64,000 bases of DNA from Corallococcus sp. RDP092CA. GTDB lineage: Bacteria > Myxococcota > Myxococcia > Myxococcales > Myxococcaceae. Below the pieces are notes generated by a model. It was not told where the DNA came from and did no database searches. It saw only the letters and a list, made by a program, of their open reading frames with translations. The translations under genes were made by a program, and so were the position numbers. Positions 447 through 49,368 of the stretch are shown piece after piece. The stretch is taken from the NCBI RefSeq assembly GCF_041903675.1, contig NZ_JAYESI010000001.1:160643-224642 (forward strand), read 5' to 3'. Numbering within the stretch: the stretch's first letter is position 1; the number at the start of each line of letters is the position of its first letter.

Positions 447-1270
447 GCAGGCCCATGGTCCTCACCGCCGCCATGGTGGGGGCGGAGACGACGCGCGAGC
501 AGACGCCGTACCTGCCCATCACCGCGGAGGAGATCGCCGAGGACGCGGTGAAGTGCCGCGAGGCGGGCGCGGCGATGGTGCACCTGCACGTGCGCACGGC
601 GGAGGGCAAGCCGTCCCAGGACGCGGAGCTGTTCCGCGCGGCCATCCGGGCCATCCGCGCGCGCACGGACGTGCTCATCCAGGTGTCCACGGGCGGCGCG
701 GTGGGCATGGGCGTGGACGAGCGGTGCGGCGGGCTGACGCTCACCGGCGCGGACAAGCCGGACATGGCCACGCTCACCACGGGCACGGTGAACTTCGGGG
801 AAGAGGTGTTCTGGAACCCGAGGCCGCTGGTGCGCGACATCGCGAAGCGCATCCGCGCCATCGGCCTCAAGCCGGAGCTGGAGTGCTTCGACGTCGGGAT
901 GATCGACGAGGCGCGCTACCTGGCGAAGGAGGGGCTGGTGGAGCTGCCGGCGCACTTCGACTTCGTGCTGGGCGTGCCGGGCACGCTCCAGGCGCGGCCG
1001 GAGGTGCTGGACTTCATGATCGCCTCGCTGCCGGAGGGCAGCTCCTGGACGGTGGCGGGCGTGGGGCGCCAGCAGCTGCCGTTCGTGGACGAGGCCGCGA
1101 AGCGCGGCGGCAACGCGCGCGTGGGCCTGGAGGACAACATCTACCTGTCCAAGGGCGTGCTCGCGAAGGGCAACTTCGAACTGGTGGCGGAGGCCGCGAA
1201 GCGGGTCCGCGCCGCGGGCCGTGAGGTCGCGACCCCGGAGCAGGCCCGGCAGCTCCTGCGGCTGGGCTGA
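443..1270 (+). CDS. kce: Beta-keto acid cleavage enzyme (BKACE/DUF849; 3-keto-5-aminohexanoate cleavage enzyme-like)
   Basis: Translation ([27 protein letters not shown]...HLHVR...QVSTGG) matches the Kce/BKACE family over its full length. Start overlaps the upstream stop, so the two genes are translationally coupled. Confidence 0.65.
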
Positions 1271-1415
1271 GGACGCCGCGCGCGGTGCCACCCCGTGAGG
1301 CCCGGGAGCGGACGACGCCCCGGGCCTTCGTGTCTCGGGGGCGCTCGCGCCCGCGTGGGCGCCTCGCGTGGAGGATGCCGCTCACGCGCGAGGGAGGTGG
1401 GGCATCCGGGGCCGT

Positions 1416-2885
1416 TCAGGCAGCCCAGGCCCAGCCCACGTGACCATCCGGGCGCACCAGCAGGCCCCCCACGCCTTCGAGGCGGCCCCCGCGCCCCACG
1501 CAGCCGCGTGCGCGCAGCGTCGTCACGTGCGAGGGCCAGCCGGGCTCCCAGCGGGGCAGGGGACGCGCGTCGTCCTCGCCCAGGCCCAGCAGCAGCCACC
1601 GGCCCGGATGCAGCGCCGCGTAGAGCCGCGCTTCCGCCCCGTCCTGGAGCGAAAGCGCCACGTCGCTCAGGCGCCGGCCACGCCAGTCCGCCAGCAGCGG
1701 TGACGTCGCCTCCGGCGCGGGCACGTCCAGCGGCGCGTAGCCCACGTCGAGCGCTCCGATGGTGTCCGCGAGTCGGCGGTTCAGCCCTGGCTCACGGAGC
1801 AGGTCGCTCAACAGCGCGCGCAGGGCCAGCGTCTCCCGCGTGGCGCCCATGAGGGCGGTCTGCGCCAGCGTGTTGTGGAGCAGCGCTTCGCCCACGGGGC
1901 GGCGCTCGCGCGAGTAGCTGTCGAGCAGGGCGTCCGGCGCGCCGTCCTTCACCACCGCCGCGAGCTTCCATCCCAGGTTCATCGCGTCCTGCATGCCGAC
2001 GTTGAGCCCCTGGCCTCCCGCGGGGAAGTGGATGTGCGCGGCATCTCCGGCCAGCAGCACGCGCCCCTCGCGGTAGCGCTCCGCGAGCCGCGTCTCGTTC
2101 CCGAACCGGGACAGCCACCGGGGCTCGCGCATGCCGAAGTCCGAGCCCGCGATGCGCAGCGTGCTCTCTCTCAGCTCCTCCAGCGTCACGGGCTCGCGCA
2201 CGGGCACCTTCTCCCGGAGCGGATCACTCACGACGATGCGATGGACGCCCGGCGCCATGGGGACCACCATCACGCCGCCCTGCTCATTCGAGATGCCGAG
2301 CGCGGGCTGGGCCGGTGGCGCACCCAACGTCACGTCGCCGAGCACCGCCGTGCGCGTCACGTCCGTCCCTGGGAACGGAATGCCCGAGAGCCGCCGGACC
2401 GCGCTCCGCGCCCCGTCCGCGCCCACCACGTAGCGCGCTCGGACCCGGAACGCCCCGGCGTCCGTGGAGCCCTCCAGGTCCACGCCCTCTGCGTCCTGGC
2501 GCAGGGCCTCCACCGTGTGGCCGCGCCGCACGGCCACGCCCAGCTCCTTCGCTCGCTCCTCCAGCAGGGCCTCCGTCATCGCCTGCGGCAGGAACAGCGT
2601 GTAGGGGAAGCGCGTGTCCAGGACGCTGAAGTCCAGGCGCGTGTCGAGCATCCCGAAGTGCCCCGTGGGCAGCGGCCGCCCCCGCTCCAGGAACCGCCCC
2701 TCCAGCCCGCGCAGCGCCAGCACCTCCAGCGAGCGCGGGTGCAGGGTCAGCGCCCGGGACTCGCGCACGGCCTCCCAGCGCCGCTCGAACAGCTCCGCCC
2801 GCCCGCCCGCCAGCGCCAGCTCGCACGCGAGCCACAGCCCGGTGGGACCTCCGCCCACCACTGCCACATCGAGGACCTCCGCCAT
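1416..2885 (-). CDS. FAD-dependent aromatic-ring monooxygenase (PgaE/OxyS/Rox-like, with C-terminal extension)
   Basis: 489 aa. N-terminal VAVVGGGPTG Rossmann motif, and DG/GD motifs including GDAAHIHFPAGGQGLNVGMQDAMNLGWKL. Divergent from a TetR-class repressor. Confidence 0.8.
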   Translation of the reverse strand: MAEVLDVAVVGGGPTGLWLACELALAGGRAELFERRWEAVRESRALTLHPRSLEVLALRGLEGRFLERGRPLPTGHFGMLDTRLDFSVLDTRFPYTLFLPQAMTEALLEERAKELGVAVRRGHTVEALRQDAEGVDLEGSTDAGAFRVRARYVVGADGARSAVRRLSGIPFPGTDVTRTAVLGDVTLGAPPAQPALGISNEQGGVMVVPMAPGVHRIVVSDPLREKVPVREPVTLEELRESTLRIAGSDFGMREPRWLSRFGNETRLAERYREGRVLLAGDAAHIHFPAGGQGLNVGMQDAMNLGWKLAAVVKDGAPDALLDSYSRERRPVGEALLHNTLAQTALMGATRETLALRALLSDLLREPGLNRRLADTIGALDVGYAPLDVPAPEATSPLLADWRGRRLSDVALSLQDGAEARLYAALHPGRWLLLGLGEDDARPLPRWEPGWPSHVTTLRARGCVGRGGRLEGVGGLLVRPDGHVGWAWAA

Positions 2886-2910
2886 GACGACCTCCGCCCG
2901 AAGGCATCAA

Positions 2911-2945
2911 ACTAACGTTGTTAGGGAAAGACTAACGCTGTTAGT
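2911..2945. promoter_or_regulatory. Two tandem palindromic operator candidates (ACTAAC-N3-GTTAG) in the divergent intergenic region
   Basis: actaacgttgttag (2911-2924) and actaacgctgttagt (2931-2945) are each inverted repeats, AT-rich against a 70% GC background. They sit between the divergent monooxygenase and tetR starts. Confidence 0.5.
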
Positions 2946-2968
2946 TTGTCAAGCCAGCGAGGGCCAGG

Positions 2969-3601
2969 GTGGGCATGCGAATCCAGCGGGAGCAGGTGGT
3001 GGCGGCGGCGTGGACGCTGCTGGACGAGCACGGCCTGGAGGGCCTCACGATGCGCGTCCTGGCGAAGGCGCTCTCCATCCAGGCCCCCTCGCTGTACTGG
3101 CACTTCCCAGGCAAGCAGGCGCTGTTGGACGCGATGGCGGACACGCTGGTGCAGGGCGTGGCGCGGACGCTGACGGCGGAGTCGCCGTGGGAGACGGTGG
3201 TGCGCACCGTGGCCGAGGAGCTGCGGCGCGCGTTCCTGGCCCACCGGGACGGCGCTCGCGTCTACGCCGGCACCATCGTCGTCTCCGAGCACACGCTGCG
3301 CGTCGCCGACACCGTCATCGGCGCGCTGACGCGAGCGGGGCTCGACTCGACGGAGGCGGGCTGGGCGGCGTTCAGCGCGCTGGACTACGTGCTGGGCTTC
3401 ACCATCGAGGAGCAGGGCTTCGCCTCGCAGGACGCCGAGGCGAAGGAGCGGGAAGGGGCGCTGCGGCAGCTCGCCTCGGTGCGCTATCCGCACGCGGCCG
3501 GCGCGGTGGACGCCATCCTGGACCGCGACTTCGATCGCCGGTTCGCCTTCGGGCTGGACCTGCTCGTCGCGGGCATCCGCACGCGGCTGTCCCCGCGGTA
3601 G
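2969..3601 (+). CDS. TetR-class (tetracycline-repressor-like) transcriptional repressor
   Basis: Translation aligns by eye along its length with the TetR(B) repressor (GLEGLTMRVLAKALSIQAPSLYWHF; LAHRDGARVYAGT; FAFGLDLLVAGI). Start is GTG at 2969 or ATG at 2975. Confidence 0.85.
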   Translation: MGMRIQREQVVAAAWTLLDEHGLEGLTMRVLAKALSIQAPSLYWHFPGKQALLDAMADTLVQGVARTLTAESPWETVVRTVAEELRRAFLAHRDGARVYAGTIVVSEHTLRVADTVIGALTRAGLDSTEAGWAAFSALDYVLGFTIEEQGFASQDAEAKEREGALRQLASVRYPHAAGAVDAILDRDFDRRFAFGLDLLVAGIRTRLSPR

Positions 3602-3763
3602 CGCGGCGCTGTCAGGAGCCCGGCGCCCAGCTCGTCCCGCCGCCCGGCACGCAGCGCACCCCCTGACACCGCGCCTCCATCCGGCTGTCCGCCCCGGGCG
3701 GCTCGGGCATCATGCCGCGCATCCCTCCCTGTCTAAGGGGAGGCCACGAGGAGCCGCGAAGCG

Positions 3764-4540
3764 ATGGACACGGGACTGCAAGGCAAGGGCGTGCTGGTGA
3801 CGGGCGGCGCGGGCGGCATCGGCTCCGCGCTGGTGCGGGCGTTCGCGGGCGAGGGCGCGAAGGTGGCGGTGCACTACCACCGCAGCCAGCAGAAGGCGGA
3901 GGCGCTCGCGCGCGAGGTGGGCGGGGCGGCCGTGCGCGCGGACCTGACGGTGGAGGCGGACGTGGACGCGCTGGTGCCGCGGGCCGTGAAGGGCCTGGGC
4001 CAGCTGGACGTGCTGGTGTGCAACACCGGCGTGTATCCCGCGCCCGACGAGCCGGTGTGGACGATGTCGCTGGAGCGCTGGCGCCGCACGCTGGCGCAGA
4101 ACCTGGACAGCGTGTTCCTGAGCTGCCGCGCCTTCCTGCGCCACGTGGAGACCACCGGCACGGGCAGCATCGTCATCATCAGCTCCACCGCGGGCCTCTT
4201 CGGCGAGGCAGGCCACACGGACTACGCGGCGGCGAAGGGGGCGCTCGCGGCGGGCTTCGTGAAGAGCCTGAAGAACGAGCTGCACCGCATCGCGCCCATG
4301 GGCCGGGTCAACGTGGTGTGCCCGGGCTGGACGGCGGTGGAGCGCAACCGCGACACGCTGGAGGACCCGCGGTTCGTGGGCCGCGTCACGCGGACGATGC
4401 CGCTGCGCAAGGTGGGGCAGCCAGAGGACGTGGCGCGCGTCGTGGTGACGCTCGCGTCGGATCGCATCTCCGGGCACGTGACGGGTGAGGTCGTCACCGT
4501 GGCCGGAGGCATGGAAGGACGGGTGCTGCATGAAGACTGA
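3764..4540 (+). CDS. SDR-family oxidoreductase
   Basis: TGGAGGIG glycine-rich motif and a YxxxK catalytic motif (HTDYAAAKGA). 258 aa. Confidence 0.85.
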   Translation: MDTGLQGKGVLVTGGAGGIGSALVRAFAGEGAKVAVHYHRSQQKAEALAREVGGAAVRADLTVEADVDALVPRAVKGLGQLDVLVCNTGVYPAPDEPVWTMSLERWRRTLAQNLDSVFLSCRAFLRHVETTGTGSIVIISSTAGLFGEAGHTDYAAAKGALAAGFVKSLKNELHRIAPMGRVNVVCPGWTAVERNRDTLEDPRFVGRVTRTMPLRKVGQPEDVARVVVTLASDRISGHVTGEVVTVAGGMEGRVLHED

Positions 4541-5324
4541 GCTGGATGTCCGGACGTACAACCGCGAGGCGTGGAACGGCGAGGTGGGGCGCGGCAACCC
4601 GTGGACGGTGCCGGTGTCCCCGGAGGTCATCGCCGCCGCGCGGCGCGGCGACTGGAGCGTGGTGCTCACCCCGAGGCGGCCCGTGCCGCGCGAGTGGTTC
4701 GGGGACCTGGAGGGCAAGGACGTGCTGGGCCTGGCGAGCGCGGGCGGCCAGCAGTGCCCGGTGCTCGCGGCGGCGGGCGCGCGCGTCACCGTCTTCGACA
4801 ACTCGCCCGCGCAGCTGGCGCAGGACCGGAAGGTGGCCGAGCGCGAGGGACTGGCGCTCCAGGACGTGGAGGGCGACATGCGGGACCTGTCCGCCTTCGC
4901 CGATGGGAGCTTCGACCTCGTCTTCCACCCGTGCTCCAACTGCTTCGCGGAGGAGATCCTGCCGGTGTGGCGCGAGGCCTTCCGCGTGCTGCGCCCGGGC
5001 GGCGCGCTCCTGTCGGGCCTCTGCAACCCGGTGCGCTACCTCTTCGACCCGGTGGAGGAGGAGAAGGGCGTGCTGCGGCTCAAGTACACGATGCCGTACT
5101 CGGACTTCACCAGCCTCACGGACGAGGAGCGCCGCCGCTACACCGACAAGGGCGAGCCCATGGTCGTGGGCCACTCGCTGGAGGATCAGCTGGGCGGACA
5201 GCTGGCGGCGGGCTTCGTGCTCACCCACCTCTTCGAGGACAAGTACGACGCGAAGGACCTGCTCTCCACGTTCCTGCCCACCTTCATCGCCACACGCGCC
5301 GTGAAGCCCTTATCGCGTTCGTGA
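4530..5324 (+). CDS. Class I SAM-dependent methyltransferase
   Basis: MKTELDV start overlaps the SDR stop. Motif I-like VLGLASAGGQ and an acidic loop VTVFDNSP. About 264 aa. Confidence 0.65.
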   Translation: MKTELDVRTYNREAWNGEVGRGNPWTVPVSPEVIAAARRGDWSVVLTPRRPVPREWFGDLEGKDVLGLASAGGQQCPVLAAAGARVTVFDNSPAQLAQDRKVAEREGLALQDVEGDMRDLSAFADGSFDLVFHPCSNCFAEEILPVWREAFRVLRPGGALLSGLCNPVRYLFDPVEEEKGVLRLKYTMPYSDFTSLTDEERRRYTDKGEPMVVGHSLEDQLGGQLAAGFVLTHLFEDKYDAKDLLSTFLPTFIATRAVKPLSRS

Positions 5325-5416
5325 CACAGACTTGCGTTGCGCCTGGCCGTCTCGAAAGCCTACAGATAGAGGTGTCCGGGTCCTCCCGGACTTCCCCCTA
5401 TCCGTAGGAGTCGTTC

Positions 5417-5968
5417 ATGAAGGTGTCGCTGCGTCTTTCCGCCGTGTTGCTGATGGGTGTGTCGTTGCTGGGCCTGGGCTGTGAGGGTGCGGGCGCGAGG
5501 GATCCGCTGAACGCCATCGAGGCGGGCGCGCAGGTGGCGGTGGATCCGTCGCTGGCGGAGGTGAAGCAGGGCGCCGTGGGCGACACGGTGCTGCGCTGCA
5601 CGCAGCCGCAGGACGGCAGCTACCTGGAGGTCGTGCAGACCGCCACGGGCTACGAGGCGGCCACGGTGTCCGAGGCCTACGACCCGTGGGACTGCCGCTG
5701 CACCTACGAGAAGCGCGTGGTGCTGGGGGAGTACACGCGGTGCAACCGCTCCACGGTGGATCCGCGCATCCTGAACTGCTTCCGCATCGAGCCCAGCGGC
5801 ACGACGGGCAAGGTGGTGCTGTCCACCACGCGCGTGCAGCGCACGCAGATGGTCATCGGCGGCACGCAGACGGTGTCGTACACGGACCTGAGCATCGCGG
5901 CCATCAACCAGGACCCGGGCCACACGCCGCGCCAGGACTTCACCTACAGCATGGACGACTGCGAGTAG
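5417..5968 (+). CDS. Hypothetical lipoprotein
   Basis: Signal peptide with LLGLGC lipobox. No recognisable domain. Confidence 0.45.
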   Translation: MKVSLRLSAVLLMGVSLLGLGCEGAGARDPLNAIEAGAQVAVDPSLAEVKQGAVGDTVLRCTQPQDGSYLEVVQTATGYEAATVSEAYDPWDCRCTYEKRVVLGEYTRCNRSTVDPRILNCFRIEPSGTTGKVVLSTTRVQRTQMVIGGTQTVSYTDLSIAAINQDPGHTPRQDFTYSMDDCE

Positions 5969-6096: not shown

Positions 6097-6480
6097 ATGT
6101 CGCTCAAGTCCATGCTTCGCGGTACCGCCGTCGCCTCGCTGCTGTTCGCCGTGCCCGTGTTCGCCCAGGCCGTCGCGCCGTCCGACACCGCCAACAAGGC
6201 GGGCCCGTGCGAGGGTCGCCGGGGCCGCCACGGCGGGGGCCACAAGTTCGGCCACATGGAGCACCGGCTGGACAAGCAGGTCGCCGAAGGGCGCCTGACG
6301 CAGGCCCAGGCCGACAGCTTCAAGGCGGAGGCGAAGCAGCTCCACGAGGAGATGAAGGCCGCGCGCGCCTCCAACAACGGCCAGGTGGACGAGGCCACGC
6401 GCGCGCAGTTCAAGGAGCGCCGCAAGGCCCTGAAGGAGAAGATCAAGGCCGCGCTGGCGCCCACGCAGCAGGGCGCGTGA
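6097..6480 (+). CDS. Small periplasmic protein with LTXXQ motif (Spy/CpxP-like)
   Basis: Signal peptide (AVPVFAQA). LTQAQADSF LTXXQ motif. Charged helical remainder. Confidence 0.45.
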   Translation: MSLKSMLRGTAVASLLFAVPVFAQAVAPSDTANKAGPCEGRRGRHGGGHKFGHMEHRLDKQVAEGRLTQAQADSFKAEAKQLHEEMKAARASNNGQVDEATRAQFKERRKALKEKIKAALAPTQQGA

Positions 6481-6563
6481 GGTCCCCGCCGTGAATGGGG
6501 GACGTGACGCGAGGGCCCCGGCCGGCACAGACTGACCGGGCCCTTTCGTCCACGGGAGTCCCC

Positions 6564-7493
6564 ATGCTTCGCAGCCTCCTCGTCGCCCTCGTCGCCCTGA
6601 CCGCCGGCTGCCGCGCGCACCCTGGCGCGACGCAGGCCCCGGTGGACGCGCAGGCCCCGGCGGAGTCGCCGGTGGCGCTGGTGGCGGACGAGGAGCTCCA
6701 GCGCGTGCAGCGGCGCGCGCGGTACATCGTCGAATCGGAGAAGGGCGCCATCCGCGCCACGGACCTGCTGCTCGCGCGCCCGGACCTGGACCGCACGCGG
6801 ATGCACAGGTTCTTCACCGTGCCGCGCGGCAACGCCTGGTACGCCGTCTTCGGCCGCTTCAACTCCGAGGACGCGTTCGTCCCCGCGTATGCGTACCGCG
6901 CGCCCATCGAGTTCTCCGGCGAGATGGAGGACTTCCCCGTCGAGTCCCTCCCGGAGGGCATGGACGCCCTGGCCCGCGCGGTGAACGCCGCGTGCGAGCG
7001 CGTCTTCCAGGTGCATGGCCGCAGGCAGCTCAACCCCGTCGTGGTGGAGGAGGACGGCGGCATCACCGTCTACGTGCTCCAGGGCTTCGACGACTCGAAC
7101 CTGTACCTGCTGGGCGGGGACTTCCGCTTCAAGTTCAGCAAGGACGGCCGCCAGCAGCTCCAGGAGCTGCCCCTGCACCAGGGGCTCATCCCCGTGTCCG
7201 TCGCGCCGGACGCGGACGGCGAGCGGCCCGCCTTCTCCGCGCACGCGCACGTGCTCTTCCCGGGGCCGCTGGAGACGGAGCTCGCGCTGGTGATGCTCTA
7301 TCCCGCGCTGGGCGGCCTCTTCGTGGGCGTGCCGGACCAGGACTGCGTCTACGCGCTGTCGCCGGACGGCACCATCCGCGCGGTGCGCCTGAGCCGCGAG
7401 GAGGTCCTCCGGGAGCTTCGGCCGGACGGCATCTTCGCGCCGCCCGAGGAGCTGAACAGCGACCCGGAGTCGGGCGCGGACGTGGCGCTCTGA
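6564..7493 (+). CDS. Hypothetical lipoprotein
   Basis: MLRSLLVALVALTAGC lipobox. No recognisable domain. Confidence 0.45.
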   Translation: MLRSLLVALVALTAGCRAHPGATQAPVDAQAPAESPVALVADEELQRVQRRARYIVESEKGAIRATDLLLARPDLDRTRMHRFFTVPRGNAWYAVFGRFNSEDAFVPAYAYRAPIEFSGEMEDFPVESLPEGMDALARAVNAACERVFQVHGRRQLNPVVVEEDGGITVYVLQGFDDSNLYLLGGDFRFKFSKDGRQQLQELPLHQGLIPVSVAPDADGERPAFSAHAHVLFPGPLETELALVMLYPALGGLFVGVPDQDCVYALSPDGTIRAVRLSREEVLRELRPDGIFAPPEELNSDPESGADVAL

Positions 7494-41690: not shown

Positions 41691-41773
41691 GCGCGTTGAC
41701 AGACCCGCCCTCGCGGTTACGTTCGCGCCACTCACGCGGTTCGCTTCTTCCAACCCCTGGCGCAGGTTCGACA

Positions 41774-47119: not shown

Positions 47120-47195
<76 letters not shown>

Positions 47196-47202
47196 AGAAG
47201 TC

Positions 47203-47240
47203 CAAGGGCTTGGGTGGCTTCGGTCGCCCAAGCCCTTTTT
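47203..47240 (+). terminator. Rho-independent terminator after tRNA-Thr
   Basis: caagggcttgggtggcttcggtcgcccaagccc followed by ttttt. Confidence 0.6.
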
Positions 47241-47475
47241 CTATGTTGCCTACGAGGCTCCGCGCCGTTTCGAGTGCCCGCGCGACCGGGCCGAGGAACT
47301 GGTGCATCAAGGAGCCTGACGTCCTCCACTCCCCCCGTCCAATCGTGGCGCGAACAGCGACCGGTCGCTCGTGCCGGTGCCGAGCGGGAGGACCGCGCAA
47401 GCTTCGCTGGGATTGTCGGACCCTGAAGTCAGGATGCCGCGCCTCCTGATTCCAGGAAGGTACCTTGGGGGGAGT

Positions 47476-48774
47476 ATGAGATTGATTGCAGTGGCGTCTT
47501 TGCTGCTTCTGTTGGCGGGGTGCGCGACCCCCCGCGTTGTCCACATCGACGTTGGGAATGGGCAGCGAGTCGTCCATGAGTCGGTGGAGGTTGACCCAGT
47601 TCAGGTGGGTGAGGACGAGTTCAAGGCGGCCCTCACGCAGCTCCTCCTCGACATGCGAATGGACGTTGCCTTCCGCGAGACGGATGCAGCCGACCGGCGA
47701 GGGTGGGTGAGGTCCCGGTCGTTGCTCGCATCCTCGAAGGGGCTCGCGGATTCGGGGGCTGGGGTGTCTCCGGAGTCCCTGTATTCGCGCATCTGCCCCG
47801 AGGGCGACGAGTGCTTGACCCTGGTGGACGGCACGGGGCTGCCCTTCTCGCGCAAGGACCGAACGTTGATGGCCCTGTCGTTCGCGCTGGATACGGTCTG
47901 GGGGAGCGTCGAGGCCGAGATCGGCAAGCTGCTGAACCCGGTGGTGCTCAAGGCCATGGTGACCTCCGCGGCGCTGACCGTGCTCCTCACGATGGCGCTG
48001 CCCGAGCCTGTCACGAAGGTCCTCGCCGTGGCGTTGACGGCGGCGATGGTGGCCTACCTGGGGGTGGTGCCTGTCTGGGAGATGGGACGGGGCTTCGTGC
48101 GGCTGTGGGACAACGCGGAGAGGGCAACGAGCGTCCTCGAGTTGCAGGACATCGGTCATCGCTTCGGGAAGGTGCTGGGGACGAACGGCACGCGTGTCCT
48201 GGTGCTGCTGGTCACGGCGGCCCTGGGTGGGAGGAACGCGATGGCGGCCCAGGGGCCCCGGCTCCCGGGCTTCCCCCAGGCTGTGTCCCGAGGACAAGCC
48301 GAGGCGGGCTTCCAACTCGGAGCGGCGATGAATGGCGGCGTGTCGTCCATCGCGCTGCCCGCTGCTGGAGTGCTGAACGTGACGCTGGCTCCGGGCGCGA
48401 CCGCTGTCGTCGCGATGTACTCGAATGGTATTCAGGGTGACGCTGAAGGTCCGGTTCACCACATCTGTACGAACAAGAACCCGGTTTCGGCTGTATCAGG
48501 CGGTCCCTGGACACCGTTGTGCGAAGAGGTCTTTGCCCGAGCCGGGATGTCCCTGGAAGATGTCTCCAACAAAGTCCGACTCGGGGGACACCAGGGACCT
48601 CATCCACGCGAATACCACGAGGCGGTATTGCGGCGCTTGAATGACGCGCTAGGAAAATGCAGGAGCATGGACGCGTGTCGGAGTCGCCTGGTCGAAGAGC
48701 TTGCCAGAATCGCAGAGGAGCTTCTGACGCCAGGTTCAGCGCTTCGGCGCCTGATTGTGCCGAAAGAGGGCTAG
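47476..48774 (+). CDS. Lipoprotein polymorphic-toxin candidate with C-terminal AHH/HNH-type nuclease domain (SitA-like)
   Basis: MRLIAVASLLLLLAGC lipobox after GGGGGGAG RBS. Two hydrophobic helices mid-protein. C-terminus VHHICTNKN...AGMSLEDVSNKVRLGGHQGPHPREYHEAVLRRL resembles the AHH nuclease signature. GC drops at the C-terminal domain. Confidence 0.55.
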   Translation: MRLIAVASLLLLLAGCATPRVVHIDVGNGQRVVHESVEVDPVQVGEDEFKAALTQLLLDMRMDVAFRETDAADRRGWVRSRSLLASSKGLADSGAGVSPESLYSRICPEGDECLTLVDGTGLPFSRKDRTLMALSFALDTVWGSVEAEIGKLLNPVVLKAMVTSAALTVLLTMALPEPVTKVLAVALTAAMVAYLGVVPVWEMGRGFVRLWDNAERATSVLELQDIGHRFGKVLGTNGTRVLVLLVTAALGGRNAMAAQGPRLPGFPQAVSRGQAEAGFQLGAAMNGGVSSIALPAAGVLNVTLAPGATAVVAMYSNGIQGDAEGPVHHICTNKNPVSAVSGGPWTPLCEEVFARAGMSLEDVSNKVRLGGHQGPHPREYHEAVLRRLNDALGKCRSMDACRSRLVEELARIAEELLTPGSALRRLIVPKEG

Positions 48775-48777
48775 TGG

Positions 48778-49368
48778 ATGTTCAATGGAAATTACTATGA
48801 TGTTGGAATTGCGGATGTCCCTCAGTGGGTGCTGGAGTTGCCTGTTCTTGCATCTGGCGACGAGCTAGACGACCCGTGGATGTTTGGGGACGGAAGGCGC
48901 CTGCCAGAGCCAGGACTCCTCAAGAGCAGGCCGTTCCGTGACGGGCCACAACGGTCCTTCTCTGTGGCGAATTCAGGGAGAACGCCTATCGCAGACGAGC
49001 AGGCTGCGAATGTCTTTCGCAAGCTGGCGCCTGCTGATGTTCAGGTGTTCCCCATCGAAGTCGCAGGAGCGAGGAAGCCACTCTTTGTCATCAACGCAGC
49101 CAGGTGCTTCAAATGCGTTGATGAGACAAACTCCAAGGAGGTGCAGATCTATCCTCCAGAGGGTGTCGCACCGGAGAGAGTCGGAACGTACCGTGCCATT
49201 TACGGACTGCGTATCGACCCTTCCAAATCAGAGGGTGCCCGGGTCTTTCGGATACAAGGCTATTCTTCTGCGTTCATCGTCTCTGAGGACATCAAGACCG
49301 CCCTCGAAGCAGTCGGGAACCTGGGCGTTTCGTTCGAGCGTGTGACCGGACCGCACGAGCCTCACTGA
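48778..49368 (+). CDS. Candidate cognate immunity protein
   Basis: ATG lies 4 nt after the toxin stop. Lowest-GC part of the window. 196 aa. No signal peptide. Confidence 0.4.
   Translation: MFNGNYYDVGIADVPQWVLELPVLASGDELDDPWMFGDGRRLPEPGLLKSRPFRDGPQRSFSVANSGRTPIADEQAANVFRKLAPADVQVFPIEVAGARKPLFVINAARCFKCVDETNSKEVQIYPPEGVAPERVGTYRAIYGLRIDPSKSEGARVFRIQGYSSAFIVSEDIKTALEAVGNLGVSFERVTGPHEPH

Follow-up and report, generated by a model that had tools for sequence, protein, structure and literature searches.

What does a regulator akin to the tetracycline repressors sense when the gene it faces encodes an enzyme rather than an efflux pump? The question is raised by a locus in Corallococcus sp. RDP092CA, at positions 1,416–5,324 of a 64,000-nt stretch of contig NZ_JAYESI010000001.1 that we analysed as a whole (hereafter the window). 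Here, a gene for a TetR-family repressor and a gene for a large monooxygenase dependent on flavin adenine dinucleotide (FAD) diverge from an intergenic region that carries two palindromes. Our best reading, to which we give a probability of roughly 0.6, is that these two genes form a self-contained, horizontally mobile module of sensor and detoxifying enzyme that is induced by a hydrophobic aromatic toxin. It builds on direct observations: which genes are present, where the operators lie and how well they are conserved, how both proteins group with their relatives, that tetracycline-contacting residues are lost, and that the same kind of sensor is rewired to efflux pumps. The regulatory anatomy predicted from the sequence (repressor, two operators, and divergent target) is well supported, and detoxification is the role that we infer with the best support.

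Operators and the repressor predicted to bind them

The exact palindrome CTAAC-N3-GTTAG occurs only twice in the window, both times between the monooxygenase and repressor genes, against an expectation of 0.01. None of 100 shuffled versions of the window (GC content about 72%, with 73% in the module region) contained at least two matches. Allowing up to two mismatches yielded a single extra match in the window, at 41731, which is at chance level. Among Corallococcus relatives the half-sites are invariant, and variation is confined to the three central nucleotides.

The motif proved similarly faithful to this regulator elsewhere. Across 643 kb, comprising the window and related loci, we found 70 exact instances. 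Of these, 68 are in the promoter region next to a member gene of this TetR subfamily, and the remaining two, both in Variovorax, occupy a separate intergenic region about 0.85 kb downstream of tetR. The consensus across loci is A(-9)...CTAAC-R-N-Y-GTTAG...T(+9). Operators are mostly paired, and pairs are present at nearly all loci where the repressor adjoins a monooxygenase. The two window operators start 20 bp apart. Start-to-start spacing is 19–22 bp in Myxococcota, Burkholderia, Agrobacterium, and Pseudoxanthomonas and 31–33 bp in Janthinobacterium, Massilia, and enterobacterial plasmids, and a Bradyrhizobium plasmid has one exact operator only. Judged by their sequence and placement, both palindromes, which a preliminary description had picked out from this locus alone, are real operators conserved across phyla.

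Some loci carry further arrangements of these sites. The intergenic region of a betaproteobacterial metagenome-assembled genome (MAG; locus L009, 3700–3870) holds three operators together with an apparent duplicated 5' end of tetR. In a Yersinia MAG (L019, 5875–6001), there is one CTAAC operator, and the place of the second is taken by a different palindrome, TTATCGATAA. Variovorax sp. OK605 (L045, 6465–6509) has two extra operators with a siderophore-interacting FAD_binding_9 gene on one side and an ECF sigma/FecR pair on the other, which suggests a wider regulon in that genome.

The position of the operators relative to the monooxygenase promoter is also conserved. At 25 related loci from Myxococcota and Betaproteobacteria, as in the window, a TTGA(C/A)A hexamer reading towards the monooxygenase lies exactly 2 nt upstream of the operator proximal to tetR. 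Where the genome is richer in AT, the -35 is followed at 16–18 nt by a hexamer resembling a -10, such as TAACAT or TACCAT. We took promoter positions from these AT-richer relatives because the sigma-70 consensus fits a GC content of 73% poorly. On this basis, the tetR-side operator would lie in the spacer of the monooxygenase promoter, directly downstream of the -35 hexamer. The monooxygenase-side operator of the window would fall just past the predicted -10, where it covers the presumed transcription start of the monooxygenase gene, and in the group with 31–33 bp spacing the second operator would be located in the early 5' untranslated region.

The repressor itself is no generic TetR but one of the closest kin of the classical Tet repressors. 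Both domains score above their cut-offs of 24 and 21 bits (TetR_N, 50.7 bits; TetR_C_1, PF02909, 96.1 bits). The protein is 31% identical to TetR(B) over its full length (pairwise E 8e-31; our TetR(B) sequence was confirmed to be identical to PDB 4ac0), and it contains the motifs PSLYWHF, HRDGARVY, and FAFGLDLL, on which the preliminary description had based the same kinship. In a PDB search, Streptomyces coelicolor 3bqy ranked first (E 3e-38), followed by TetR(H/G/A/D/B) at E 1e-30 to 1e-24; BioQ (5yek) matched at E 2e-27. The best NCBIfam model is the TetR equivalog NF010319, with a score of 148 bits that falls below its cut-off of 265.

Comparison of the DNA-reading head with that of TetR(B) links the repressor to the palindromes. 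When TetR is bound to tetO, base-specific hydrogen bonds come from two residues only, Arg28 (to G+2) and Gln38 (to A+3), and specificity is set by Gln38, Pro39, and Thr40 (PMC7102968). Outward from the centre, the tetO core reads G2 A3 T4 A5 G6, while all half-sites of the window operators read G2 T3 T4 A5 G6. The window reading head matches that of TetR(B) save for T27M and Q38A, with Arg28, Pro39, Tyr42, Trp43, His44, and Lys48 present. Arg28, Tyr42, and Lys48 occur in all subfamily members compared, and Trp43 and His44 in all but a Streptomyces member. Every member with a CTAAC operator has Ala at the Gln38 position and Met at the Thr27 position. The Streptomyces member has Arg43 and Tyr44, and its operator is TGAAC-N3-GTTCA instead. 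The coincidence of the Gln38 to Ala change with the A3 to T change in the operator is the strongest internal evidence that the palindromes are the binding sites. The locus combines a tetO-type reading head with two operators in a divergent promoter region, and binding is predicted from that combination.

Ligand pocket and monooxygenase

The ligand pocket of the repressor differs markedly from that of the tetracycline sensors. Eight tetracycline-binding residues are conserved in TetR: His64, Asn82, Phe86, His100, Thr103, Arg104, Gln116, and Glu147 (PMC8326586). At these positions the window repressor has Ala, Val, Leu, Tyr, Thr, Ile, Val, and Glu, so that six of the eight are replaced. The replaced set includes the three most important residues (His64 to Ala, Asn82 to Val, and Phe86 to Leu) and the Mg-binding His100, which is Tyr. 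Trp75 and the RDG motif hold the alignment columns of Asn82 and Phe86 firmly in place, while that of His64, which adjoins a gap, is less secure. Of the eight residues, Thr103 and Glu147 alone persist, both in the window repressor and across the subfamily, in which the other positions are similarly hydrophobic. The helix-6 switch region is retained (RDGARVYAGT, compared with RDGAKVHLGT in TetR(B)). Because six of the eight tetracycline-binding residues have become hydrophobic ones, tetracycline-Mg is unlikely as the inducer, and the tetracycline-like ligand that the preliminary description had listed as one option is not supported. The window repressor probably operates in the manner of TetR but with a hydrophobic ligand.

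The divergent gene encodes an enzyme of the PgaE/OxyS/Rox type, as the preliminary description had proposed. Its Pfam domains are FAD_binding_3 (302 bits, E 1e-89) and a C-terminal, thioredoxin-like Rng_hyd_C (46 bits). The translation carries the fingerprints of class A flavoprotein aromatic hydroxylases: GGGPTG at residues 11–16, GADGARS, and GDAAHIHFPAGGQGLN. The best PDB match is OxyS (4k2x, 4e-109), followed by MtmOIV (1e-98) and Rox (3e-93). The closest solved relatives, OxyS, MtmOIV, Rox/RIFMO, AlpK, FlsO1, and PgaE, span E 1e-109 to 1e-82, while small-phenol hydroxylases match at E 1e-28 or worse. These nearest solved relatives oxygenate large aromatic polyketides or rifamycins, and OxyS hydroxylates anhydrotetracycline.

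Within this class, the enzyme does not belong to any named family to which it was compared. Its best NCBIfam model is PRK08244 (NF006092), a "monooxygenase" of unknown function, at 609 bits, just short of the cut-off of 644. The second-best, rif_monoox (Rox/RIFMO, NF033145), gives 406 bits against a cut-off of 800, and Iri (NF000343) gives 288 against 950. Identity to OxyS, Rox, RIFMO, and MtmOIV is 45–46% (45.6% to both Rox and RIFMO), based on reference sequences rebuilt from the printed PDB-search alignments. With the same sequences, we built a neighbour-joining tree of the monooxygenases. Rox, RIFMO, OxyS, and MtmOIV cluster outside a separate clade of monooxygenases linked to this TetR, which contains the window enzyme, the proteobacterial TetR-linked enzymes, and Archangium orthologues.

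Two other assignments were considered and rejected. Tet(X)-type destructases (types 1 and 2) are proteins of about 380–400 aa in which FAD-binding and substrate domains are followed by a C-terminal bridging helix, and they resemble Tet(X) or Tet(50) in sequence (PMC10944477). The window enzyme has 489 aa and ends in Rng_hyd_C, and no Tet(X) chain was present among the 48 PDB sequences that matched it at E <=1e-10. A role in a biosynthetic cluster was ruled out, as the longest open reading frame (ORF) of the window has 1428 aa and the neighbouring genes belong to lysine fermentation or to no recognised family.

Distribution, mechanism, and competing explanations

The repressor-monooxygenase pair is widespread and occurs in otherwise unrelated surroundings. 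A monooxygenase scan of one genome per species returned 33 loci, to which the window proteins were compared by tblastn. The divergent pair is present in four species of Corallococcus, in Janthinobacterium, Massilia, Telluria, and Allopusillimonas, in the betaproteobacterial and Yersinia MAGs, and, more distantly, in Saccharopolyspora. Further look-ups added Pyxidicoccus, Myxococcus stipitatus, Hyalangium, and a Streptomyces, as well as a conjugative Bradyrhizobium plasmid and the Agrobacterium plasmid pAt. The monooxygenases at these loci are 50–56% identical to that of the window and the repressors 42–52%, and the genes around the pair are otherwise unrelated between lineages. In Burkholderia territorii (L036, 2037–8205), the module is flanked by DUF772 transposase fragments and by an rve/IstB pair of the IS21 type, a setting suggestive of recent mobilisation.

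Clustering of all ORFs across 42 loci revealed no third conserved gene; besides antisense artefacts, it returned only a generic cluster of short-chain dehydrogenase/reductase (SDR) genes in varying position and orientation. In the window, tetR is followed on its own strand by an SDR gene and an overlapping gene for a methyltransferase dependent on S-adenosylmethionine (SAM), an arrangement that the preliminary description reported correctly and counted as part of one inducible small-molecule cassette. We found these two genes after tetR only in Corallococcus and Pyxidicoccus, and they are absent at all proteobacterial and plasmid copies. Myxococcus stipitatus and Hyalangium have the pair and both operators in unrelated surroundings without either gene. 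The inducible, detoxifying character of the cassette remains part of our best reading, while its four-gene extent does not. By the comparison of loci, the functional unit is two genes, tetR and the monooxygenase gene, not four.

The same sensor is wired to efflux pumps in other bacteria. In a tblastn search against plasmids, the closest relatives of the window repressor (about 50% identity) were on plasmids of Klebsiella pneumoniae, Enterobacter, and Citrobacter; the K. pneumoniae carriers are urine isolates with conjugative IncFIB/IncHI1B plasmids. On these enterobacterial plasmids, tetR diverges from an operon for an outer-membrane-factor/HlyD/MFS pump (L039, K. pneumoniae plasmid CP067450.1, 3780–8630; L040), and the intergenic region holds two CTAAC-N3-GTTAG operators 33 bp apart. 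This pump-linked version is rare (6 of 72,556 plasmids). In Pseudoxanthomonas, a subfamily member and two operators precede an RND pump. Residues at the pocket positions are similar between pump-linked and monooxygenase-linked repressors. Since one repressor subfamily with one operator type drives either export or oxidation, a toxic ligand is the simplest explanation.

We propose the following mechanism. A TetR-like dimer would bind both tetO-like sites (CTAAC-R-N-Y-GTTAG, at a spacing of 20 bp), of which one lies in the monooxygenase promoter between its -35 and -10 positions and the other over its predicted transcription start. The bound dimer would repress the monooxygenase gene. The repressor gene itself is probably repressed too, because the promoters are divergent and overlapping. 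A hydrophobic, probably polycyclic aromatic toxin would then enter the apolar pocket of the repressor and work the helix-6 switch (RDGARVYAGT, with Thr103 and Glu147 retained), releasing the DNA. The induced enzyme, dependent on NAD(P)H and FAD, would oxygenate and inactivate the toxin, as Rox does with rifamycins and MabTetX with tetracyclines. Here it is repression, the exact promoter positions, induction by the substrate of the enzyme, and the chemical class of that substrate that we infer.

Several observations weigh against a toxin-responsive module of this kind. The monooxygenase clade is equidistant (about 45% identity) from OxyS, Rox, and MtmOIV, and the substrate class of these enzymes is therefore not transferable to it. 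The enzyme is also not tied to this sensor, as Archangium orthologues (63% identity) are paired with a divergent AraC-type gene and a Bacillus sonorensis orthologue has a MarR gene downstream. Nor need the members of the repressor subfamily share one ligand, since the Variovorax repressor lies near other, unrelated genes. At a few loci the pair is joined by hydrolase, RidA, or SDR genes, a possible sign of catabolism instead of resistance. Finally, a scan of positions 1200–5600 for promoters and terminators under E. coli sigma-70 rules, at 73% GC, found no consensus -10 and no terminator.

Four other explanations appear less likely to us than the toxin-responsive pair. The module could be a tetracycline resistance cassette, in which tetracyclines or anhydrotetracycline induce the repressor and are destroyed by the monooxygenase in the style of Tet(X) or MabTetX. 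Such a cassette would account for the kinship with the Tet repressors, for an operator only one core position away from tetO, and for OxyS as the best PDB match of the enzyme; moreover, MabTetX shares FAD_binding_3 and Rng_hyd_C and is repressed by a TetR (PMC6143652). However, the replaced pocket residues, the repressor score far below the equivalog cut-off, and the lack of Tet(X) among the 48 PDB sequences argue against it. In addition, MabTetX is only 34% identical to the window enzyme, and its repressor MabTetRx has no similarity to the window TetR. We regard this explanation as improbable. A rifamycin monooxygenase of the Rox/RIFMO/Iri type, suggested by the identity to Rox and RIFMO and by the rank of the rif_monoox model, is very improbable, as both family scores fall well short of their cut-offs and Rox and RIFMO group with OxyS and MtmOIV outside the TetR-linked clade. 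Actinomycete Rox genes are controlled by a rifamycin-associated element.

The enzyme could also be a catabolic hydroxylase that takes the first step in the use of an aromatic nutrient, with an ordinary substrate-responsive repressor. Its class does include phenol, 3-hydroxyphenylpropionate, and pentachlorophenol hydroxylases, and alpha/beta-hydrolase, MBL-fold, RidA, or SDR genes lie downstream at some loci. We nevertheless think plain catabolism unlikely, because more than 30 loci contain no ring-cleavage dioxygenase or other conserved pathway gene, the enzyme is far closer to polyketide and rifamycin oxygenases than to small-phenol hydroxylases, and efflux pumps under the same sensor and operators elsewhere fit a toxin better than a nutrient. 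A pathway of four genes, in which the repressor governs successive steps by monooxygenase, SDR, and methyltransferase on a single small molecule, would explain why tetR, the SDR gene, and the methyltransferase gene share a strand, why the last two overlap by 11 nt, and why the arrangement is kept in Corallococcus and Pyxidicoccus. However, the lysine-fermentation flank (kce/kal) is also syntenic in both genera, so the linkage may reflect inherited gene order. Between Corallococcus and Pyxidicoccus, identity is 86% for the SDR, 71% for the methyltransferase, 71% for the monooxygenase, and 68% for the repressor; the SDR is much better conserved than the module genes, and the methyltransferase is no better. 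The 162 bp that precede the SDR gene also contain no operator, even at two mismatches. Together with the bare pairs of M. stipitatus and Hyalangium, these observations make the four-gene pathway improbable.

A bolder form of the toxin-responsive reading is possible, although we hold it only tentatively. In that form, the repressor would represent a lineage sister to the Tet repressors that reads its operators by a separate code (Gln38 to Ala, A3 to T), senses one specific natural toxin or antibiotic, and is wired either to a new clade of antibiotic-inactivating flavoenzymes or to tripartite pumps, including those on conjugative plasmids of clinical Klebsiella. The whole would then amount to an unrecognised mobile resistance determinant.

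Neighbouring genes and comparison with known systems

Coordinates of the module and of the genes that follow it are given in Table 1. For the repressor, ATG 2975 is the likely start, as a Corallococcus database protein of 208 aa is 100% identical; an exact-sequence look-up of the window repressor and of this twin matched no contig. The monooxygenase start codon lies 83 bp from the tetR ORF and 89 bp from ATG 2975, with GGAGG 5 nt upstream of its ATG, and the protein is 91% identical to that of Corallococcus sp. AB011P. The most plausible methyltransferase start, ATG 4530, gives the 11-nt overlap with the SDR gene, which is identical in Pyxidicoccus.

Table 1. Positions of the repressor-monooxygenase module, its predicted regulatory sites, and adjacent genes in the window
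Feature	Position	Strand	Remarks
Class A FAD-dependent monooxygenase, 489 aa	1416–2885	-	Pfam FAD_binding_3 and Rng_hyd_C
Monooxygenase-side operator, CTAACGTTGTTAG	2912–2924	.	Exact CTAAC-N3-GTTAG palindrome
TetR-side operator, CTAACGCTGTTAG	2932–2944	.	Exact CTAAC-N3-GTTAG palindrome
-35-like hexamer TTGACA, reading towards the monooxygenase	2947–2952	-	Read from sequence; offset kept in relatives
TetR-family repressor, 208 aa	2975–3601	+	TetR_N and TetR_C_1; ORF opens with GTG 2969
SDR, 258 aa	3764–4540	+	Pfam adh_short_C2; neighbour, probably outside the module
SAM-dependent methyltransferase (class I), 264 aa	4530–5324	+	Pfam Methyltransf_11; neighbour, probably outside the module

The methyltransferase has a sole close solved relative, PDB 8k76 (E 4e-54), which is annotated as an S-adenosylmethionine-dependent methyltransferase and was mentioned in no paper found by our literature search. 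Upstream of the module, at 48–1270, kal (3-aminobutyryl-CoA ammonia lyase) and kce (3-keto-5-aminohexanoate cleavage enzyme) score above their NCBIfam cut-offs. Both are genes of lysine fermentation, found here in a myxobacterium that is aerobic, and in Pyxidicoccus they run on into genes for lysine 5,6-aminomutase. Beyond the methyltransferase gene, three consecutive ORFs (5417–5968, 6097–6480, and 6495–7493) have apparent signal- or lipoprotein-type N termini and no Pfam or NCBIfam match; Corallococcus keeps all three, and Pyxidicoccus the middle one. Farther away, a tRNA-Thr(CGT) gene (47120–47195) is followed by a gene (47371–48774) whose 467-aa product carries an AHH nuclease toxin domain at its C terminus and, directly after it, by one for an Imm11 immunity protein (48778–49368). 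The stretch from 47120 to 49368 is the GC minimum of the window (0.64–0.68, compared with about 0.72) and looks like a tRNA-adjacent polymorphic toxin-immunity islet.

Individual copies of the module elsewhere show further features. On pAt of Agrobacterium tumefaciens Ach5 (L042, 3647–4925), the monooxygenase is annotated as a 330-aa FAD-dependent oxidoreductase and an overlapping 105-aa hypothetical protein, and the gene is probably frameshifted. A RidA gene follows the monooxygenase gene on Agrobacterium pAt, and a RidA-like gene follows it in Streptomyces albiaxialis.

The consequences of our reading depend on the substrate. An antibiotic would add a clade to the flavin-dependent antibiotic inactivators, beside Rox, Tet(X), and MabTetX, and members of this clade are already found on plasmids and beside insertion sequence elements. 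A common phenolic would make the module just an ordinary TetR-regulated hydroxylase. The inducer of the enterobacterial pump version would point directly to the substrate of the monooxygenase. The difference of one base and one residue from TetR/tetO also offers a natural test of the rules of TetR DNA recognition, and the repressor and operator could serve as an orthogonal TetR/tetO-like part that responds to another inducer.

On the regulatory side, the closest known system is that of Tn10-type TetR and tetO (classes A–H, with tetA). Both have TetR_N and TetR_C_1, a divergent gene pair, and two palindromic operators that overlap promoters, with half-sites of 5 bp around a 3-bp centre that are identical at core positions 2, 4, 5, and 6. 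Arg28, Tyr42, Trp43, His44, Lys48, Thr103, and Glu147 are kept in the window repressor. The window system differs in T at operator position 3, in Ala for Gln38, in its hydrophobic pocket, in a score below the equivalog cut-off, and in its target, which is an enzyme and not the TetA pump. BioQ of mycobacteria and corynebacteria and 3bqy of S. coelicolor belong to the same TetR_C_1 branch, but their half-site sequence and regulated genes differ. The BioQ operator, which we take to be TGAAC-N3-GTTCA, shares the 5-N3-5 form, and this exact motif was found at the Streptomyces member (L035). We know of no published function for 3bqy. The plasmid pump version resembles VceR-VceCAB in gene order and regulatory logic. 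VceR is a TetR-type repressor divergent from an operon for an outer-membrane-factor/fusion-protein/MFS pump in Vibrio cholerae (PMC6780985).

On the enzymatic side, Rox/RIFMO, OxyS, and MtmOIV share 45–46% identity and the same three-domain architecture with the window monooxygenase, which nonetheless falls in a separate clade near PRK08244. The nearest parallel to the proposed logic, and the only such case described, is MabTetRx/MabTetX of Mycobacterium abscessus (MAB_1497c/MAB_1496c), a proposed "type 3" destructase system. There, a TetR represses the gene of a large flavin monooxygenase, and the enzyme inactivates the antibiotic that acts as inducer (PMC6143652). We recovered the MabTetX sequence by scanning metagenome contigs with a published cloning primer. 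The recovered ORF has 475 aa, agrees with both primers at its N terminus (MTVVIAGAGP) and its C terminus (YLARVV), and is preceded by a gene for a 190-aa TetR that overlaps it by 4 nt. MabTetX has the FAD_binding_3 and Rng_hyd_C architecture of the window enzyme, with the 34% identity extending over 352 aa. MabTetRx carries TetR_C_11 rather than TetR_C_1 (E 9.4 to the window repressor), and its gene forms a same-strand operon with that of the enzyme, unlike the divergent window pair. Because the enzymes are only 34% identical and the repressors are without similarity, we consider the mycobacterial system and the Corallococcus module to be analogous rather than orthologous.

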